Below are positions 401 to 24,030 of a DNA stretch of 64,000 nt, piece after piece. The stretch is from Mobula hypostoma (taxonomy: Eukaryota): NCBI RefSeq assembly GCF_963921235.1, contig NC_086107.1:101806001-101870000 (forward strand). Direction: 5' to 3'. Under the pieces are notes generated by a model that was given only the letters and a program-made list of their open reading frames with translations, was not told where the DNA came from and did no database searches. Within the stretch, counting starts at the first letter, position 1; each line of letters starts with the position of its first letter. Position numbers and translations under genes: made by a program.

Positions 401-2410
401 ACCATCCTACCACTCTCTGTTTTAAAAAAAAACTTGTTTTGCATATCTCCTTTAAACTTTCTCCCTCTCATGTTAATTATATATCACCTTGTATTTAATA
501 TTTGCTTCCCAGTGTTTGCCAAGATCGTGCTGGAATATAACAATTCTTTGCAAGCTGTTCTTAGCAGATCCAATTTTAACCTCAGAGACAGACTCTGACT
601 GTCTGCCCCATCTATGCCTCACATAATTTTCTATCAGGTCTCCTCTAATCTAGGCAAGGAACCTCTTCTGTGGTTTCAGTGGCTCCAGGTCCTTGCTGTA
701 ATGGGGCAACCTGAACTGCATACAATTATGTAAGTGCAGCCTAACTGAAGTTTTATATATACTTTTGTATTCATTGCCTCAACCAATAAAGGCAAGCATA
801 CTGTATGCCTTCTTGACCAACCTATCTACTTGTGTGGCCACTTTCAGTGAATTATGGACTTGGACCCAGGATCCCTCTGCACATCAAAGCTGTTAAGGGT
901 TCTGCCATTAACTATATAATTTTCCCTTCCAAAGTGAACCAGCTCACACTTGCTCAGATTAAGTTCCATCTGCTGTTTATATGCCTATAACTGATGTATA
1001 ATCCTGCTGTACCCTTTGAAATCCCTTTACTCTGTCCACAATTCCGCCAATCTATGTGTCAACCCATGCATCTACATTTTCATCCAAATAATTTATATAC
1101 ATCACAAACAAGAGGCCTTAAGACCAATCCCTATGGAACACCACTGGTCACAGCCATCCAACTAGAACATTGCAGGGCACTGCTGTAGCACAGCATTAGC
1201 ACAATGCTATTACAGCTTTGTGGGGGGGTAGGGGGTAGAGTTCAATTCTGGCATAGTCGGTAAGGAGTTTGTGCATTCTCTCCATCACCGTGTTGGTCTC
1301 TTCTGGGTGCTTCAGTTTCCTCCTGTAGTCTAAAGTACAGGTTAGCCCGAAAGAACCTGTTCCACACCGTATCTGTAAATAAAATAAATAAACAATACCC
1401 TTCCACCCTCAGCATCTATGGGCAAGCAAATTCTGAATCCAAACTAGCAATTTACTGCCAATCCAATGCATGATACTCATATGGTTCTGCCTACCATAAG
1501 GGACCTTGTCAAGTGTCTTACTGAGGTCCATGTTGGCGTTATCTACTGCCCTACGCATTCATCGCCTCCTCAAAAACTGAATCAGATGTGTAAGACCTGA
1601 CCTGCCATGCACAAAGCTATGCTCACTGGTACAATTCCCAAATCCTGTTTTCCAAATGCTTTTAAGTCCTTTCTCAAGAAATTGTCTCCAATGGCTTCCC
1701 TATGATGGAAGTAGGGCTCACAGGCCTATAATTTCTTAGATTATCCCTATTTTCCTTCCTGAACAAAGGAACAACAACATTGGCTACTCTCCAGTTGTCC
1801 AGTACCTCACTTGGTTCTAACAAGGATACAAAAGTCTTTGTCAACATTCCAGCAATTTACTCTCTTGCCTCTTTCAATAACCTGTGATTTATCTAGTTGG
1901 GGTCTGAGGGTTTATCCACCTTAATGCTCTTCAAAAGATGAAGCAGCACTTCCTTCTCGATCTTACAATTCCCCACACTGCTCTCACTATCCTCTATGTA
2001 CTTTTTTTTAAGGAATACTAACTCAAAGTACTCATTTAGTACCTCACCCACATCTCCTGACTCTATCCTTTGTCCTACAGTTTCTTTGGTTATCCTCTTG
2101 TTTTAAATGTAAGTATAAAATGCCTTGGGATTCTCTCTAATACTACATGCCAAGGACATTTCATGGCCCCTTTTGGCCACCTTAATTCCCTGCTGGAGCA
2201 CTTTCCTGCTATCTTTATATCCCTCAAGGGACCTGTCCAATTTTAGCTTCCTCAACCTTACAAATGCTTCCTTTTTCTTTTTAACTAAATTCATTACTTT
2301 TCTCATCATCCAGTTTCAGTTACCTTGCCATCGTTGTCCTCCCTCCTACTGGAGCATACTTGTCAAGAGCACTGATCAGCTGGTCTTTGAATAACTCCCA
2401 CTTTCGGATG
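400..2410 (-). mobile_element. CR1 LINE fragment (3' region, RT and linker), decayed, split by a V-SINE
   Basis: Antisense of GVP.G.VL near 1115-1150. ORF 2103-2309(-) ends in ENPKAFYTYI, a CR1 linker motif. Confidence 0.8.
1171..1390 (+). mobile_element. tRNA-derived V-SINE (HE1-like)
   Basis: B-box-like GTTCAATTC, V-domain-like GGGTGCTTCAGTTTCCTCCTGTAGTCTAAAG and an (AAAT)n tail. AACA on both sides; the CR1 host resumes afterwards. Confidence 0.75.
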
Positions 2411-2477
2411 GAAACTCAAAGCAACATATCTTAAGCTCCTCCAGTTAAATGCTGTAACATTGTTGTGAAGCACTTTC

Positions 2478-2682
2478 CTTTAAGAGAACTGGAATTCTTT
2501 CTGGTGTCTTAGTTAACATTTATCTTTCAACAAATGTCACCAAAACTGGTGACCTGATGATTGCTATTTGTGGGATATAGATAGTACAAATGGCTACACA
2601 GAATGATTGTAATAATGCTTCATTGGTTAATAATCTGTGCCAGGATGTGTTCAGGTTGTAAAAAAAGTGCTATGTAAATGGT
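2478..2682 (+). mobile_element. Old Deu-domain SINE remnant (SacSINE1/AmnSINE1-like)
   Basis: GGTGTCTTAGTTAACATTTATC...TTGCTATTTGTGGGA...CTTCATTGG...GTGCTATGTAAATG follows the Deu domain and tail as I recall them. Heavily diverged. Confidence 0.55.
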
Positions 2683-3179
2683 GACTCTCCATGTTTTGCC
2701 AGGTTTTTTTGTTAGTGCATCTGGAGCGAGCCAGTGAAACAGCTTTTGGAGTTAATTATTGGTGTGCAATTGTTGGGTGATGGGGCTGTTGTTGGTCGCT
2801 GACTGCTGCTGATAGTGGGGCTTTTGTGAAATATTAAATCAATATATATTTATTTTCAATTTTCTTGAATTTTTTTTAGTTGATAGGTAGGTGTAAAAAT
2901 GCATTTTAACCACATGAAGCAGATCATATGATGAAACCTCAAGGAATGTGTTCAATACGATTTTTGGTGGGGAAAGGCTGAGATAGCTGCCAAACACCAA
3001 TATTCAGTCATTCTGGAAAAACAGTTTTCTACAATTAATGTTCTTCAGTCTGGAAAGGCCTCTAGTCCATTACCGATTACAAAAAGAATGCATCCCTACC
3101 CCAATGATCACTTCCTTCCAAACGAATAAATGAGAGGTCTTTGATTCACAGATTACCATTAAACCCCCCCCCCCCCGCA

Positions 3180-4556
3180 GTGCCCATTCAGCCAGACCAT
3201 CACTAATGCCTCACACTCTTCATCAAAGAAGATGAGGTGAGAAAGCTGTTCAGGAAGCAAAATATCCCAAGGATGCGCTTGGAAGACGAGTGCGCCTTCA
3301 TGGTTGTGGGATTTCGTAGCTCTGGTGCCCCTGACTGAAGTGTCGCGGGAGAACATGGAACATTGGGAGTTGCGCCTTATTGGTGCCAACTCTCTGGGCA
3401 CAGTGCTTAGAAAAAGCAATGCAACTGATTTACAATGTTATGTCTCCCCTCTCACTGTGAAACAGGGACACCTCTTTTTCCCTTATTAGGGAGACAGGGA
3501 GCTTGTGGTATGTCGAATTACCGGATGAATGAGTAGTTTTTGGGGTACTGCAAGTCTGTGTCTTTATTGATGCTTTGCTGCACGCTTGAGTGCTCAGTGG
3601 AGGGTGCTGATGCCTTTTTTGCTGGTGGGGGTGGTGGAGGGGTTTTGGGATTCTAACTTTTTAACTGTCATTCATTCTTTGGGGCACTCCTAGATGTCTG
3701 CAAAGAAAAAGAACTTCGGGATCTATATTGTATACATTTTTCTGACATTAAATATACCTGTTGAAATATCAAGAAGGCTGCAGCACCTGTTTGTCTCTCT
3801 CCTTTGCCACCTTTAAAAATTGTGCAGTGTTCCAGCATGTTTCAAGAAATCTGTTATTATCCCAGTTCCCAGAAAAATCAAAGATCCATGCACTCAATGA
3901 CTACAGGCCAGTTGCACTCACATCAGTCACAATGAAGGCTTTTGAAAGGTTGGTTAAGTTATTTCTCAAATCCATAACTCAAAATTTTCTTGAGTCATTG
4001 CAATCTGCTTACAGAGCCAATAGATCTGTTGATGATGTAATTAACATCAGTTTGGACTTCATGCCACAGCATCTCGAGTCTGCTGGTACATTTGTTAGGA
4101 TTTTCTTTGTTGATTTCAGTTCGGCCTACAATATCATCATCCCTGAGCTTCTGCAAGAAAAACTACCATAACTTAACATACCAGCTCCCATGTGCAGATG
4201 GATCACAAAGTTTCTCTCTGACAGGAGGCAGTATGTGAGACCAGGTAAGCACGTCCCACATTCTGCTCAGTTAGGGGTGTGTTCTCTCTCCTCTCCATTT
4301 TTCTCTATACACCACTGACTGCATCACCAGATCACCGCCATACTAGTGCTCCCTTCTGTAAAGTGCTATAGCACTACTAAAATATAAACTTCATGCCATC
4401 TTAAAAGTTTCTTCCACCAGGCAGTTAATCTGATCATTCTAGTTAGCCCCTCCCCCATCACCCCAACCCCTCTCTATTACTTCAATCACTGAAAAGCTGT
4501 GTAAGCATTTTTTATAAGGTTGTAAGTACATGCTGGTATTTATGCATAGTTTATTC
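3180..4556 (+). mobile_element. Rex1-clade LINE, 5'-truncated and internally deleted
   Basis: IKEDEVRKLFRKQN near 3220-3260. ORF 3761-4171 has LNDYRPVALTSVTMKAFERLV, LQSAYRANRSVDD and FVDFSSAYN. C-terminal LKSFFHQAV near 4400. Confidence 0.85.
3267..3763 (+). mobile_element. Non-coding retroposon inserted in Rex1, 7-bp TSD
   Basis: AAATATC at 3260-3266 and 3764-3770. Rex1-like coding sequence on both sides; LINE-like AT-rich tail (TGACATTAAA). Confidence 0.7.
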
Positions 4557-14747: not shown

Positions 14748-17270
14748 GAGAGTTGTCTATAGGCCACCAAATAATAACATTACAGTGGCACAGGCAATAA
14801 ACGGAGAAATATCTGAGGCATGTAAAAATGGAACAGTAGTTATTGTGGAGGACTTTAACTTGCACATAGATTGGGTGAGTCAAGTTGGTTGAGGCACTCT
14901 TGAGGAGGACTTCATAAAATGCATACATAATAACTTTCTTCAACAGCATGTTACTGAACCTACAAGGGAATGTGCTATCTTGGATCTGGTCCTGTGCAAT
15001 GAGACAGGTAAAATTAGCAATCTTGTAGCTGGGGATCCTCTTGGAAACAGTAATCACAGTATGATTGAGTGTCTCATATAAATGGAGGGTGCAATAGTTT
15101 GATCTAAAAACAAGGGAGACTACAATGGGATGAGGAAGGATTTGGATAAGGTAGACTGGGAACACGGGCTGTCTGGTAGGATGGTTGAGAGACAGTGGAG
15201 GACTTTCAAAGAGATTTTTCACAGTGCTCAACAAAAGTATATTCCAGTTAAAAGCAAGAACAGTATGAATGGGGAGAGCAGGCCATGGATAACTAAGGAA
15301 ATGAAAGCATCAAATTAAAATCTCATGCGTCACCAAGAATAGTGGGAAACTGGAAGATTGGGAAAGCTTTAAAAGGCAACAAAGAACCACTAAACAAGCA
15401 ATAAAGCAAGGGAAGATAGATTATGAAAATAAATCAGTGCAAAATATAAAAACGGATAGTAAAAGTTTTTATAATTATATAAAGCGGAAAAGGGTGCCAA
15501 AGTGAGCGTAGGTCCCTTGGAGGACAAGGGGGAGTTGATATTGGGTAATGAGGAAATGGCTGAGGCTTTGAATATCTATTTTGTGTTGGTCGTCACGATG
15601 GAGAACACATCTGACATGCCATAGAGAGATGATATGGATGCAGTTGGAGGTGAGGATCTCGATACAGTAGCTATCACTAAAGAGGCAGTGCTGAGCAAAC
15701 TTGTGGGCCTAAAGGTAGATAAGTACCCTCGTCCTGATGGAATATATCCCAGGGTACTAAAAGAAATAGCAGAGGTTATAGTTGAGGCTTTGGTGATAAT
15801 TTACCAAAATTCTCTGAACTCTGGGCAGGTCTCGGCAGATTGGAAGAAGGTGAATGTCACGCCACTATTCAAAAAAGGATGTAGGCAAAAGGCAGGTAAC
15901 TATAGGCCAGTTAATTTAACATCTGTAGTTGCTTGGGGCTATCATCAAAGAAGAGATAGTGAGGCATCTGGAAAGAAATGGATCCATCATACAGACACAG
16001 CATGGATTTAGCAAAGGCAGATCCTGTCTGACAAACTTACTGGAGTTGTTTGAGGATATAACAAGCGCAGTGGATAGAGGGGAACAGACATTATATACTT
16101 ATATTTCCAGAGGCGTTTGATAAGGTGCCACATAGAAGACTTATCCATAAGATAAGCATATATAGAGTTGGGGTTGGTGTATTGGCATAGATAGAGGATT
16201 GATTAAACAATAGAAAGCAGAGAGTTGGGATACATGGGTGTTTCTCTGGTTGGTAATTAGTGGTGAGCAGTATGCCACAGGGGTCGATGCTGGGCCCACA
16301 ACTGTGCACGATATAAGTTTATGATCTGGAAGAGGGTACTGAGTGTAGTGTATGTAAGTTTGTTGGTAACACTAAATTGAGTGGAAAAGCAAATTGTGCA
16401 GAGGATACAGAGAGTCTGCAGAGAGATATAGATAGGTTAAATGAGTAGGCAAGGGGCTGGCAGATGGAGTACAATGTTGGTAAAGTGAGATCATGCACTT
16501 TGGAAGGAAAAATGGAAAAGCAGTTTATTATTTAAATGGTAAAATATTGCAGTATGCTGCTGTACATAGACTTGAGAGGGCTTGTGCATGAATTGAAAAA
16601 GGTGCAGCAGGCTATCAAGAAGGCAAATAGAATGTTGGCCTTCATTGTTAGAGGGACTGAATTTAAGACCAGGGAGGGTATGCTGCAACTGTATAGGGTA
16701 ATGGTGAGGCTGCATCTGGAATACTATGTGCAGTTCTGGTCTCCTTATTTGAGGGGGATATATTGGTTTTGGGGGCAATGCAGAGGAGGTTCACCAGGTT
16801 GATTCCAGAGATGAGGGGGATAGATTATGAGGAGAGATTGAGTCACCAGGGCCAGTACTCGCTGGAGTTCAGAAGAATGAGAGGAGATCTTATAGAAACA
16901 TATAAAATTATGAAAGGGATAGATAAGATAGAGGTAGGAAAGTTGTTTCTGCAGGTAGGTAAGACTAGAACTAGGGTACATCACCTCAAGATTCAGGGGA
17001 GTAGATTTAGGATGGAGATGAGGAGGAACTGCTTTTCCGAGAGAGTGGTGAATCTGTGGAATTCTCTGCCCAATGAAACAGTGGAGGCTACCTCAGTAAA
17101 TATATTTAAGACAAGGTTGGATAGATTTTTGCATAGTACGGGAATTAAGGGTTATGGGAGAAAGGCAGGTAGGTGGAGATGAGTCCATGGTCACATCAGC
17201 CATGATCTATTGAAAGGCGGAGTAGGCTTAATGGGCCAGATGGCCTACTCCTGTTCCTATTTCTTATGTT
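14748..17270 (+). mobile_element. CR1 LINE ORF2, 5'-truncated, with intact 3' end
   Basis: VVYRPPN, GNYRPVNLTSVV, QHGFSKGRSCLTNLLE, LEYYVQFWSP, RMRGDLIETYKIM; tail CCTATTTCTTATGTT at about 17270. Confidence 0.92.
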
Positions 17271-18160
17271 ACCTACTACTGATAACCAGCTCACTGGCTT
17301 ATAATTTCCAGGCCTATTCTTCAAATCTTTCTTTAAAAATGTAACAACATTGGCTATCCGGCACCTCATCCATGGCTAAGGACATTTTCGATATTTGTAC
17401 TAGGGTCCCTGCAGTTTCTGCACCAGCCTCCCACCATGTCTGAGGGAACACTTTGTCAGGCCCTGGGGATTTATGCATCCTAATTTGTCTCAGGATAGCA
17501 AGCATCTTCTCCTCTGTAATCCAGTTATGGTCCACGCCCTCACTGCTGTTTTGCTTCCATTCTGTAGACTCTTGTGTCCATCTCCCGAGTAAATACAGAT
17601 CCATAGATGACCACATTGATCTTCAAGAGGACAAATTTGGTCCCTTACTATCCTTTTGCTCAACATATCTGTAGAAGCCCTTGGGGTTCTCCTTCACCTT
17701 GTCTGCCAGAGCAACCTTCTTTTAGCCCTTCTGTCTTCTCTCTTAAGTATTCTCTTGTATCCCTTATACTCGTCAAATACCACATTTCTTCTTTGCTGTC
17801 TATACTTGCTATGCACCTCCTTCTTCTTAACAAGACTTCAATAGTTCTCAAAAACCATTGTTCCCTGATCCTGTTCTGACAGAAACATATAAACTCGGTA
17901 CTCTCAAAATTTCACTTTGCCAGAAAACAATCTATACCAGTCTATACTTGCCAGATCCTTTCTGATGCCACCAAAATTGGCCTTTCTCCAATTTAGAATC
18001 TCAACCCAGTAACCAGACCTAGTCTTCTCCATAATTATCTTGAACTAAGGAATGTGATCATTAGATCCAATGTGTTCCTCTACTCATCTGCCATACCTTG
18101 TTCCCTAATAGGAGATCCTGTATTGCACTATCTTTATTTAGGACCTCTATGTATTGATGA

Positions 18161-21100
18161 TTTTACTTCTTGTGTCACACATATCCAATATCTTGTTAGT
18201 GACCCATGGTTTAGACTTGCGGCGGCTTTTCCCCAGAATCTTGCTTGCTGTTTCCTTCATCACTGTGTTAAAGTTATTTGTGGTGGTCTCCAGGTCTTCA
18301 TCAAGGAGGAGTATTGGTGCAAACTCCTCCCCCCCCCCCAATTACTGCCTGAAATTCTTCAAAGATGGCGGGGTCTTTCAGTTTTTCAAGGTAGAATCTC
18401 AGCCAGCTGTTTTTCGGCTTGTTGATTTTTCTCAAGCGCACTCTGATGTTCATCATGACAAGGTCATGGTCACTGCCCACGTCTGCTCCTGGGAATGTTC
18501 TGGTCTTCAGTCTGTTCACACCAGATTTGTGCCATCTTTGCACCAGGATGTAGTCAATCTCATGATGTTGACCATTGGGGGCATGCCAGGCCCATCTTCG
18601 GGATGCTTTGTGCTCTCCAAGAGTGTTTGACAGCACTATGTTGTTATAACTGGCAAATTCCAGCAGGCGTAGTCCCCTCTCATTGGAGGTGTCATTGCAT
18701 GAGGTGCCGATCAGATCTCCCCAATCATCTTGTGCGTCTCTGCCCACCTTGGCATTCCAGTCACCCTGAATGATCAAAATATCTTTTTTGTCCACCTTGT
18801 CGATGGCGTCTTGTAGTTTCTTATAGAATTCTTCAATGTGTTCATTGTTGTAGTCTGTTGTTGGGGCGTAGACTTGTGCCACTGTGATGTTGAATGGCTT
18901 TACTCATAGGCGGATGGTATTGAGCCTGCTTGACACTGGTTGACATTCTAGGACAGCGTTCTTGATGGATTTGTTGACTAGGAACCCTACGTCATTTTCA
19001 TGTCTGTTCTTTTCTCCACTGTAATAGAGTACATGTCCTTCCTCAGTATGCACTTCTCCAGCGTTCTTCCATCTGGCCTCACAGAGCCCGAGGAAGTGCC
19101 AGTTGTATCTTTCCATCTCATGCGTGAGTTCCTTAAGTTTCCCTGCTTAGTTCAGCGTTCTTACATTCCATGTGGCAATTGTGATGTTCTCTCTGCCATG
19201 GATCTTCTGTGTCGAATCACCACTAGCACATTTATCACGTCCACCCTGGTGTGAGACAGATAGCGTTGTCATTGGTAACCCGGGCTGTGACTGATCCTGT
19301 ATGAAGTTGCTTTTTGGTGTGCTCATCATGCTGCGTGTCTTGGGCATCTGAAATCTGAAGCCCATTCCTCTCCAGGTTAAACCACAGCCGATTTCCTCCA
19401 ACTAGGTGGCTTGCCTTGGTCATGAACATGTGGCCGTTATACTTCATCTATGGAAGTCATTCACCCAGTGGTGCCATGTTAACACCACCCCCTCACGTGG
19501 TTTAGCCTGCCAGCTGAAGCGGTTTACCAGGGTATGGCACTTGCAGCCAACACCTGAGAGATTTAGGAGATGGATGAGTACCGGTGATGCCCGTCCACCC
19601 TGTCTGGTAAGGAGCAGCATGCCAGACATCAAAGGTATTACCTCTATCCAGAGCCCCCTATACCCCAGCAGAGGGAAGAACAGAATCCAGGAAAACCAAC
19701 AAGGATATCAGGAGGGAAATGAAGGAAACAAAGCAAAGATGGATAGCGGAACAATGTGCAGACATTGAAGACAGCCTCTCCAACAACACAAAGAAGACAT
19801 TCCAACTGTTGAAAGATCTTACCAAAGAAAAATAAGCCAAAGTAAACACCATCCAAGACAAAAATGACAAAAGTCTCACAGAAGAAAAGGAAATAATGGA
19901 AAGATGGACAGAGTACCGTTCAGAACTGTGCAACTACCAGAGCAAAGGGGATCCAAGCGTACTGAATGTACAGGAATCTTCCAGTGAGGATGACTATCTA
20001 ATCATGTGTGAAGAAGTTGAAGCCGCAATACGATCACTGAAGTGCAGGAAGTCAGCAGGAGTTGACAACATCCCTGCTGAACTGCTGAAGCATGGAGGAC
20101 AGGCCACGATAGACATGCTTACCACCATCTGCAATAAGATCTGGCAGACAGATGAATGGCTGACACCTTGGACTCAGAGTCGCTGATCATTGTGCTTCCC
20201 AAGAATGGCAATCTCCAACTTTGCCAGAATTACCTTACCATCAGTTTGATCAGCCATGTAAGCAAGGTAATGCTCAGAATCATCTTGAACAGACTGAGAT
20301 CTCAGGCAGAAGACATCATTGCTGAGGAACAAGCAGGCTTCTATAAGGGCAGAAGCACCACTGAGCAGATTTTCAACCTCCGCGCCCTCTGTGAGAAACA
20401 CCTTCAGCACCAGAGAGAGTTCTACCATGTCTTCATAGACTTCAAGAAGGCGTTTGACAGAGTCTGGCATGATGCCTTATGGGCCACCATGAAGAAATTC
20501 AACATGGGGCAGAAGCTGATTCATACAATCCATTGGCTTTATGCCAAGGCAACCAGTGCAGTACTCACTCAGAGCACAATTGGGGAGTGGTTCCATACCT
20601 CTGTAGGAGTTCATCAGGGCTGCCTCCTCTCCCCCACTCTCTTCAATGTCTTCCTGGAACGAATCATGAGTGTTACCCTTGAAGATCATGTGGGCACAGT
20701 CAGCATCGGAGGGAGGAACATCACAAACCTAAGATTTTGCTGACGACATTGATGGACTTGCAGGAAAAGACAAACTGGCCAACTTGGTCAGCCATCTTGA
20801 CAGAGCTTCCACAAAGTCTGGAATGGAAATAAGTGCCGAGAAAACCAAGCTCATGGCAAATGCCAATGGTGCCATCACAACAGACATTTCAGTCCATGGT
20901 CAGAAACTTGAGAAAGTGCAGCAGTTCAAATACCTGGGGGCAATCATCAGTGATGAAGGATCAAGACCAGGATTCCTGGCAAGAATCGCACAGACAATGA
21001 CTGCACTATCCAAACTCAAGACAATATGGAGGGACAGCAACATCACCATGAAGTACAAGATCAGACTCCTGCGTGCATTGGTATTCTCCATCTTCCTGTA

Positions 21101-21541
21101 CGCATGCGAGACATGGCCCATCATAGCAGAGCTACAGAGGAAGAGACAGGCATGGGAAATGAGATGCTATTGCATCATCTTGGGCATCTCATACTTGGAC
21201 CACATCACAAACGAGCAGGTCCGCAAGACCATCCAACACCACATTGGCCCTCATGAAGACCTTCTCACAACAGTGAAGAAAAGAAAACTGAGATGGTACG
21301 GCCATGTAACAAGATCCAGTGGCCTTGCAAAGACCGTTCTACAAGGAACTGTGGAGGGGAAAAGAAGGAGAGGTAGACAGAGGAAAAGATAGACGGACAA
21401 CATTAAAAAATGGACAGGGAAAACATTTGTGGTGACCCATGCTCTGGCACACAACCGCGACAGATGGAACAGACTGGTGAAAATCTTGTCATGACGCCGC
21501 CCCGACGACTCCACCAGGAGTTAAGGGTGCAAGGCAAGGCT
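18161..21541 (+). mobile_element. RTE-clade LINE, essentially full length, with inverted 5' half
   Basis: Minus strand 18161-19666: 5' UTR and APE (ATWNVRTL, QVYAPT, GDWNAKVG, GSDH). Plus strand 19667-21541: linker, RT (FIDFKKAFDRV, QGCLLSPTLFN, F-ADD), LRWYGHVTR, GKRRRGRQRKR, (CAAGG)n tail. TSD TATTGATGA 18152-18160 and TATTAATGA 21542-21550. Confidence 0.93.
19490..19666 (-). ncRNA. HDV-like self-cleaving ribozyme at the 5' end of the RTE element (degenerate copy)
   Basis: P1 GGGGUAU/AUACCCU with a G1-U wobble; P2 CUCUCAGGUGUU/ACCACGUGAGGG; P3 GGC/GCC; GG after P1; short P4; J4/2 GCUAA. All elements are in HDV order. Confidence 0.75.
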
Positions 21542-22904
21542 TATTAATGAAGGAAACTTTGTTGAACACGTCGGACAAACTCTATCGCATCTTGCCCTTC
21601 TATAATATGGGAGTCCCAGTCAATATGTAGAAATTTAAAATCGCCTACTATCGCAGCCTTATGTTTCTTGCAACTGTCTGTGATCCCTCTACAAATTTGT
21701 TACTTGAAATCCTGCTGACTATTGGGTGGTCTGTAATATATAATTCATGATGCTTACTTCCCAAAAATATGTCTCACTGCAAAAGTAATTGCAAGTGGAG
21801 CTGAAGTTGAAAGTTTGAGTCAGGTGAAAGAGAAGGGGAATTATTCCTACTATCTCATAAAATTTGCAATGTGATGCACGACAGAATTCAAGTAATCAAA
21901 GAAGCACCTGCAGTTAACCATCAGCGATTAATTTAGCTATTTGTTTACCACATCCATAGCTACAAGTTATGATCCTAATAACTTCAGCACATTAAAACCA
22001 GAGGAAAACCTGCTCCTTCTGTGCTTCTGCAAGCCAGAATGAGCTAAATTGAATTCCTTGTTAGGTAGTGGAGGAAGGACTAGATAAGACATGGAGTTCC
22101 TGAGAGTGGTCTATATATACCTATCTTGCCAATTCTATAAACTCACATTTCTGAAGCAGCAGCACATCTGTCCTGTAGGACATTTGAGAACAGACTAGTT
22201 GAGATTAATTCTGCCTTGAGAGCACCGGTCCATTCTGTACATCTTCTTATTTATGTAAGTTAGATTGCAAATCATAGTCAGAGTTGCAAAACAGCACTGC
22301 AAATTTGAAGAGAGCGTTTCTGACAGCAATGCTTCTGCCTGGCCACAATTTCAATGGAGGTGTCTACATTGTAGATTACAGAACTGAGCATTTCAGCACT
22401 TCCTACCTCTGCTTCACTGCCTTTAGTATTTTTTTTGCTGCCCCCTGGGATTTTGTATTTCAGGTTTGCTGAGCTTCTGATTTATATTCTCCAAAAACTG
22501 GCCTTGCACCTCGATTTGCTTCTTCTCACTGTTGTGAAACTCACTCTCAGCATACATCCAACTGAATGACTTTCCACTTAGTGTATTGCTGTGTGCACTG
22601 ACACCTACAATAGATGAGTGTAATGTGGTACTCCCAGGAAAATTCCTCTCTAACCTAGAGCTCTGTCTACTTTCTGTGAGTGTCCAAGAGGAAAGAAGAA
22701 AAGATGAATATTTAGAACTTAGAAAGTATCAATGTGTCCAAGAGGGAAATAACAAATTGGTTGATGTTAAAATTGTCTGAAGGTGACTGCTTTGTGGTAC
22801 TGAAAAACTGCTTTAGTCAGTCTACTTTGCTGTGGTTGAGAGTGTTGGAGGTACAGTATGTCCAATCTCCAAGGTTCCCCCTCTTTTGGAGTCATCTGTA
22901 GCAT

Positions 22905-24030
22905 CAGTTCATAGAACCATAAGAGTTATGTATTACAGAAACAACCCATTCTGCCCACCCCGTCTAAACTGACCTTTTTGCTTATCTACACTAATCCTAT
23001 TTGCCCACATTTGGTTTGTATATCCTTTCATGCCTTAAGTGTTTCTTAAGCGTAATTACTGCATCTAACTCCATCATCCCCTGTGGCAGAAACTGTGAAC
23101 ACAACTTTCCACTCAAATTCTCTTTTAAAACTCCTTCCTCACAATTTAAACCAATGTTCGCAATACAAGACTGCTCAAGCCCTGTCAGATTTTATGGGGA
23201 TCATGAGGGGACAGTCTTTTTCAAGTCCAGCCAGAAATTCTCAATTGTATTGAAGCCTGGACTCTGACTTGGCCACTCCAGGACATTAACTTTGTTGTTT
23301 CGAAGCCATCCCCGTGTAGTTTTGGCTTTATGCTTGGGGTCATTGTCTAGCTGGCAAACAAATTTTCTCCCAAGAGACTGCATCAGGTTTTCCTCCATGA
23401 TTTCCCTGTATTTTGCTGCATTCATTTTACCCTCTACCTTCACAAACCTTCCAGAGCCTGCTGCAGTGAAGCATCCCCACAGCATGATGCAGCGTGTCCT
23501 TTTATCACTACCCTCTGCTTCCTGTCAACAATTCAATATTGAATCCAATTATCTAGTGCGCTTAGGATCCCTTGTTCCTTAACCTTTTGGACCAGTCTAC
23601 CATGAGGGACTTTGTCAAATGCCTTACTGAAATCCACATAGAACACATCTACCTCCCTGCCTTTATTGTTCTTCTTAGTTACCACTCAAAAAACTAAATT
23701 AAGTTATTCAGGCAGGATTTCTATGCTGACAATTACTAATCAGCCTCAGCCTTTTCAAATGTACATAAATCCTGTCTCTTAGAGTTACTTGCCTCGAGTT
23801 ACCTAGCTTATCCCTGCAGCTTTTCTTAAATATAGGAAAAACACTTGCTATCTTCCAATGTTTTGGAACCTCACCTATGGCTAACAAAGATGCAGAAACC
23901 TCCACCTGGGTCTTCCTTGCTTCTTAGCAATCTGGGTTAGATCTCATTGGATTCTGAGGATTTATCAACACTTTTGAGTCCCATGATATCCAACACCATC
24001 CTCCTTAATACTGACCTGTTCCAGATTAAT
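22905..24030 (-). mobile_element. CR1 fragments, decayed
   Basis: 3' tail near 22910. ORF 23708-23905(-): GEVPKHWKIASVFPIFKK. Confidence 0.75.
23175..23492 (-). mobile_element. Internal Tc1 transposase fragment without TIRs, same family as 5361-7762
   Basis: MLWGCFTAAGSGRFVKVEGKMNAAKYREIMEENLMQS...DNDPKH...WPSQSPGFNTIENFW, closely matching 7108-7380. Confidence 0.9.

Follow-up and report, generated by a model that had tools for sequence, protein, structure and literature searches.

What does the junction between two oppositely oriented pieces of one retrotransposon, at position 19666 of the window, record? The window is the whole stretch of Mobula hypostoma DNA that was analysed, 64,000 nucleotides long. 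Our answer, held with good though not complete confidence, is that a single RTE insertion was produced by twin priming and that the 5' end of its template RNA was set by the element's own HDV-like ribozyme.

Layout of the insertion and its internal junction

Alignment against eight full-length copies showed that window positions 18152-21550 hold a single LINE insertion of RTE type whose 5' part is inverted. Its parts are the following.

18152..18160, plus strand: left target-site duplication, TATTGATGA; register confirmed by paralogous host-repeat contigs
18162..19666, minus strand: inverted arm, element 1-1526 (L061 numbering), with the 5' leader and a broken endonuclease region
18304..18903, minus strand: fragment of an apurinic-type endonuclease domain (Pfam PF14529, E 2.3e-7)
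19492..19666, minus strand: predicted HDV-like ribozyme fold, decayed in the window copy
19666..19666, no strand: inversion junction, a single base common to both arms (element G1; forward-arm C)
19666..21540, plus strand: forward arm, element 1546-3417, with a broken reverse transcriptase region, 3' UTR and tail
20156-20740: reverse transcriptase match (Pfam PF00078, E 2.7e-25)
21530-21540, within the forward arm: (CAAGG)n tail
21542..21550, plus strand: right target-site duplication, TATTAATGA, 8/9 identical to the left copy

The element has the features of an RTE: full-length copies of 3.3-3.4 kb, an apurinic-type endonuclease followed by a reverse transcriptase with no ORF1, an endonuclease region that starts some 0.5 kb into the element, and a 3' short tandem repeat tail, (CAAGG)n, with target-site duplications. 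Six of the nine named matches to the endonuclease (among 120 matches listed) were called 'craniofacial development protein 2-like', a label that we take to mark RTE endonucleases.

The target-site duplication is 9 bp long with one mismatch between its copies, and one extra T stands at 18161, between the left duplication and the inverted arm. The register, 18152 equal to 21542, was given by paralogous host-repeat contigs that run uninterrupted through the insertion site; one of them has exactly 33 letters from 18118 to 21542, the length of 18119-18151. Between the arms, 19 nt were lost relative to the eight full-length copies, or 20 relative to one copy with an insertion. The insertion has the hallmarks of twin priming, that is, opposite arms of one element inside one duplication and a small deletion at the inversion point.

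The host of this copy (window 17600-18150 and 21551-21700) is an older, very abundant repeat, for which contig depth and read-through contigs point to many paralogues without the insertion. Elsewhere in the window lie a minus-strand open frame (23201-23524), presumably like a Tc1-type transposase fragment, and broken plus-strand frames (14893-17182), presumably like a CR1-type LINE.

From 19666, the minus strand reads GGGGTAT, and the sequence-only reading was thus right to place the first G of P1 there. It had also seen no spacer between the arms, and the forward arm indeed matched from 19666 onward in 8/8 full-length copies compared; the codons gca gag gga begin at 19668, the two bases in front of them (19666-19667) closing a Thr codon. 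The consensus base before 19666 in the forward arm is A, not C (8/8 copies), and the templated microhomology amounts to 1 nt, base 19666 fitting either arm. The CC/CCA microhomology once proposed therefore shrinks to one C templated on both sides, as judged from the eight full-length copies. A single shared base cannot distinguish G1 from G2 as the end of the cDNA; the proposal that reverse transcription ran to the template's last nucleotide and was joined there holds, with last or last-but-one base as the wording. The same join was found at a second inverted locus (L101; C50:52840033), which ends at G1, has one shared C and continues with A. The chance of a 1-nt microhomology at both junctions is about 1 in 16. 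The concern that bases from 19667 onward might belong to the 5' leader found no support, as BLAST of window 19667-19730 against the first 400 nt and the upstream 500 nt of 39 copies returned no match.

The family 5' end and the predicted HDV-like fold

Judged from the aligned copies, 19666 is the first base of the RTE family. The pile-up of 5' ends at GGGGTAT, with unrelated flanks, that had been anticipated from the window was found: 52 of the 59 copies holding the 5' region start there, with at least 5/7 bases of the motif at position 1 (exact in 30). Upstream 30-mers of these 59 copies had a mean identity of 29% (maximum 60%), versus 90% inside the element, and flanks were likewise unrelated in the best 29 other matches to the leader. 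Element sequence conserved upstream of GGGGTAT, which would have spoken against the cleavage-site reading, was looked for in the 59 copies and no homology was found. Because the 59-copy set was partly picked by a query starting at G1, an internal query (element ~417-967) was also used. It matched 39 other copies; 31 extend to within 9 nt of position 1, seven lack RTE sequence at the expected place and one is inverted. Of 39 loci taken over 5 kb, a 3' end was identified in 31, and in 20 a duplication could be scored, 8-16 bp long (11 bp in 8/20). The duplication adjoined or overlapped G1 in 14 of these 20, one of which sits in a CA repeat, and 1-7 extra bases intervened in the other six, with offsets scored up to 8 nt.

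Some copies showed peculiarities of their own. At L090 (G000:C21:101110705-101110965), the 5' junction carries roughly three tandem repeats of the element's first 7-9 bases, a pattern that resembles repeated jumping at the RNA end. Some copies, C55:24517629, C5:49357692 and C22:51212918 among them, break off close to the endonuclease start, either immediately ahead of it or within it (three at element 484-485, two at 584), possibly at pause sites or with a second leader type. L034 and L057, both on contig C5, are full-length, have the same 80-nt deletion and show 95% identity to each other, versus 90-92% for the family. Finally, G000:C55:56683812-56684056 is a 235-245 nt piece of element ~990-1230 that lies, in the same orientation, within a copy at its position ~2355.

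The majority sequence of 40 aligned leaders can be laid out as an HDV-type fold, with P1 pairing 1-7 to 132-138, P2 pairing 109-118 to 166-175, a 101-nt J1/2, P3, L3 TCCAAGC, P1.1, P4 and J4/2 CTAA. In the HDV core consensus, a +1 purine pairs at the foot of P1, L3 contains U and G, and J4/2 contains C-N-A. These core bases were found, in the L3 and J4/2 just given and in a paired +1 purine at the P1 base (G1-C in 22/40 leaders, G1-U in 13/40). The corresponding predicted elements of the window copy are listed here.

19660-19666 with 19529-19535: P1
19549-19558 with 19492-19501: P2, with a J1/2 of 101 nt
19536-19548: P3 and L3
19527-19528: P1.1 GG
19505: C at the catalytic position

The window copy departs from the majority at 19544 (P1.1) and 19554 (P2), and it failed a strict descriptor, which we had composed from general HDV features after the sequence was seen. 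The family majority matched this descriptor, with P1 at position 1 and the nested double pseudoknot in the right order. So did 10 of 39 copies, and in each of these position 1 was the sole match site within 5 kb, both strands considered; the remaining 29 failed it, besides the window copy. None of 3000 shuffled sequences matched, and 93.5% of helix cells were paired in register, versus 32-52% when the helices were slid. Covariation was no higher than in shuffles (score 0.063 vs 0.063) in this single young family of 94% identity, which is too uniform for the comparison to have power. Rfam gave no match at gathering score in the whole window, and by E-value just two chance matches in 19200-19900 (E 5.4 and 7). 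In the minimum-energy fold without pseudoknots, the first 13 bases pair with the end of J1/2 and P1 is not formed. We rejected as P1 a local hairpin at 19631-19666 (GGGGTAT with ATACCTT, 21 nt away): it has no P3/L3 in the right order and is absent from the family majority, the true partner being 19529-19535.

The family also has a shorter form. At 23 of the 39 loci fetched for the 5' leader (L032, L033, L035-L038 and others), the copies are ~450-nt bipartite derivatives made of the first ~390 and the last ~60 nt of the LINE. They keep the HDV-like fold, start at G1 and end in (AAG)n, not (CAAGG)n.

The junction had been read as a fossil record of self-cleavage, independent of the fold prediction. 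What it records is the 5' end of the template RNA, not cleavage itself, and it is not independent of the fold because it would mark that end however the end arose; in L1Tc, the promoter start coincides with the cut site at +1 according to the accessible part of PMC3185411. Nor can the junction alone separate cleavage from a sharp transcription start, and it adds little beyond the dozens of ordinary full-length copies, which record the same end. Published work would lead one to expect the coincidence with G1, the base at which any cDNA that has fully copied a ribozyme-trimmed RNA comes to a stop. The ribozyme-cut reading itself survived, supported indirectly by the descriptor match at position 1 and by the lack of a cap-derived G, and lost its claim to independence.

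Could the RNA end instead be the start site of an internal promoter, twin priming having occurred all the same and the HDV-like fold being inactive or trimming to the same end? A sharp start would yield an identical pile-up, L1Tc offers the precedent just cited, and the lack of covariation (within one family) and the competing minimum-energy fold point the same way. Against this stand the five HDV helices and the core bases, all present, with P1 exactly at position 1. The bases at the junctions also bear on it. Full-length L1 and SVA are said, in the available text of PMC2912911, to carry a copied cap G, whereas here G at -1 occurred in 6/45 ordinary copies, versus a 20% background, and both inverted junctions reaching G1 (window and C50) have exactly four C, not five. 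No sign of a cap-derived G was seen in the 45 ordinary copies or at the two inverted junctions; an uncapped end, i.e. cleavage, is therefore favoured. By analogy with L1 and SVA, this would count against the internal promoter, an account that we regard as unlikely.

T stood at -1 in 26 of the 45 ordinary copies (p 0.0008) and at -2 in 20, and at both inverted junctions reaching G1 the terminal C is followed by A. This suggests, as a lead only, that an untemplated A is added to run-off cDNA; target preference could equally yield T at -1.

Inversions across the family and how they may arise

We surveyed the family by five whole-element searches, each scoring 40 of about 1,400 candidates, which gave 80 distinct loci. 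Two abutting arms on opposite strands were present at eight of them, or at 7/79 when the window is excluded (95% interval 4-17%); as the sample favours long copies, this value of about 9% is not a genome-wide rate. Two further loci, judged by eye, had no inversion, giving 7/81. Mid-element and 3' queries were left out of the 7/79 because their matches span the query and cannot reveal inversions. The values below come from alignment coordinates, with edges uncertain by a few bases; the junctions were read at the window and C50.

Window: outer end of inverted arm at element 1; 19 nt lost
C50: outer end at 1; 52 nt lost
C9: outer end at 85; 12 nt doubled
C40: outer end at 471; 3-7 nt doubled
C55: outer end at 485; 11 nt lost
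Second C40 locus: outer end at about 1200; 19 nt doubled
C5: outer end at about 1265; 19 nt doubled
C22: outer end at about 1655; 20 nt doubled

The seven inversions other than the window thus show 11-52 nt lost or 3-20 nt doubled at the inversion point; at C55, the opposite orientation was confirmed by a 261-base piece. A loss or doubling of 19-20 nt recurs at four of the eight (window 18161/19666, C22:89309700, C40:114525357 and C5:223643686) and may correspond to an enzyme footprint on the RNA. One further candidate, L087 on C36, was not counted: it had looked like an inverted arm reaching the 5' end and turned out to be full-length and collinear, preceded by a short inverted segment. That segment (G000:C36:92784836-92785096) is 137 nt of element ~1329-1465, joined to position 3 via a shared GG; it looks as if the first cDNA had overtaken a second priming event, or as if another RNA had been primed.

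Twin priming would explain all eight two-arm layouts. At the window, the parent transcript would have cleaved itself before G1, leaving an uncapped RNA, and the endonuclease would have nicked both strands 9 bp apart. One nick would have primed at the (CAAGG)n tail, its cDNA being copied to position 1546, while the other end primed internally at about 1527 and gave 1.5 kb of cDNA up to the RNA end. The two cDNA ends would then have been joined through one templated C, or perhaps CA if the enzyme added A, with the loss of the 19 nt. We infer that the 3' end of the left duplication, TATTGATGA, was the second primer. Its pairing is 3 bp including one G-U, offset by the extra T at 18161; internal-priming complementarity in L1 is mostly 2-5 bp in the portion of PMC2912911 at hand.

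The weakness of this pairing leaves some room for another insertion route, such as enzyme fold-back, a template jump or repair synthesis, with no second primer at the target, and the C36 locus, with a full-length copy behind its inverted internal piece, shows that other template-jump products occur in the family. However, 8/8 two-arm loci have the layout that twin priming predicts, in which the inverted arm has its inner end at the flank and this end almost adjoins, in element coordinates, the point where the forward arm begins; such a route is therefore improbable. An inversion of a full-length copy at the DNA level, after insertion and with one break at the element edge, would give the same final layout, yet a random break falls within 1 nt of position 1 with a chance of about 3/3400 per event, and a second such case among the seven other inversions with a chance of 0.006. 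The matches listed at the eight loci include no third 5' piece left uninverted, and of 217 inverted-repeat pairs the 25 longest include none that joins the two breakpoints; we give this scenario very little credence. An assembly artefact, or two separate head-to-head insertions, can practically be dismissed: none of the contig matches listed spans 19666 (36,628 pieces lie beyond them), but within a single duplication the two arms complement each other as pieces of one element, and a run X4 contig bridges the left junction (18017-18195, 3 differences). Mobilisation by L1 protein in trans was considered and not favoured, given the (CAAGG)n tail and a site that does not read TT/AAAA, the L1 target-site motif.

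Significance and comparison with known systems

Twin priming on a ribozyme-trimmed RNA combines known ingredients; that 5' inversions should be unexpectedly common in a non-L1, RTE family is the part worth following. In cultured cells, the available text of PMC4245944 (four datasets) has 5' inversion only with L1 in human cells, bar one Nimb-2 insert, and links it to overhang length, with long 3' overhangs. For RTE, the part of PMC4476161 at hand reports only template-switch chimeras. We found no report of RTE 5' inversion, and Ruminski 2011, Kojima and Okada 2009, Ichiyanagi and Okada 2008 and Ostertag and Kazazian 2001 may cover it. The words inversion, inverted, twin and ribozyme do not occur in PMC13295347, which deals with Bov-B insertion signatures, and in PMC5389967, PMC6007223, PMC3747384 and PMC11371274 such terms are confined to reference lists. 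A broader proposal, to which we give somewhat less than even credence, is that twin priming is routine, and unreported, in an RTE LINE outside mammals whose RNA is uncapped and headed by a ribozyme, and that run-off cDNA gains an A and joins via CA. If this were true, inversion would be no speciality of L1 (about 9% of long RTE copies), and inverted copies would show, across the genome, where template RNAs had their 5' ends and how processive the enzyme is. An often-inverting RTE family with duplications of 9-13 bp would also test the overhang-length model, and it would show that two priming events can occur on a LINE RNA that lacks both cap and poly(A).

The closest parallel is mammalian L1, whose twin-priming 5' inversions (Ostertag and Kazazian 2001) are described in the accessible parts of PMC2912911 and PMC4245944. 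As in L1, an inverted 5' arm and a forward 3' arm lie in one duplication, perhaps with short junction microhomology, and a few bases are lost or doubled where the arms meet (PMC12350158, accessible text). Unlike L1, the window element belongs to the RTE type, carries a (CAAGG)n tail and has no ORF1, and its duplication is 9 bp, versus mostly 10-20 bp in L1 inversions; RTE duplications peak at 10-12 bp in the available text of PMC4245944. About 9% of long RTE copies are inverted, compared with 31% for L1 (639/2068 recent human and chimpanzee insertions in the consulted part of PMC2912911), the two denominators not being alike.

The second parallel concerns the 5' end. HDV-like ribozymes are described at the 5' ends of the non-LTR elements R2 (PMC3774820) and L1Tc (PMC3185411), and at those of RTE by Ruminski et al. 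2011, as relayed by PMC3774820 and PMC5786205, all in the text accessible to us. In the same partial sources and the review PMC6765202, the 5' junction is established as the cut site for R2 and stated to be so for R4, L1Tc and RTE. As 5' junctions are already read elsewhere as a record of the cut site, the idea of the sequence-only reading was mostly right, and it was neither independent nor new. The bipartite non-autonomous Bov-A and RTESINE (PMC5786205, in part) resemble the ~450-nt derivatives in their retained ribozyme-like fold and their start at G1; with their (AAG)n rather than (CAAGG)n ends, these are context to the inversion, not the main finding. Like the R2, L1Tc and RTE ribozymes, the predicted fold would form a double pseudoknot from element base 1 with a long J1/2 insert, and genomic 5' junctions are read as the record of its cut site. 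Unlike them, it has no Rfam match, and the end is seen here inside the insertion, where one cDNA meets another, and not where cDNA meets target; because neither side of that junction is target DNA, it is a clean read-out, with no cap G and no upstream leftover.
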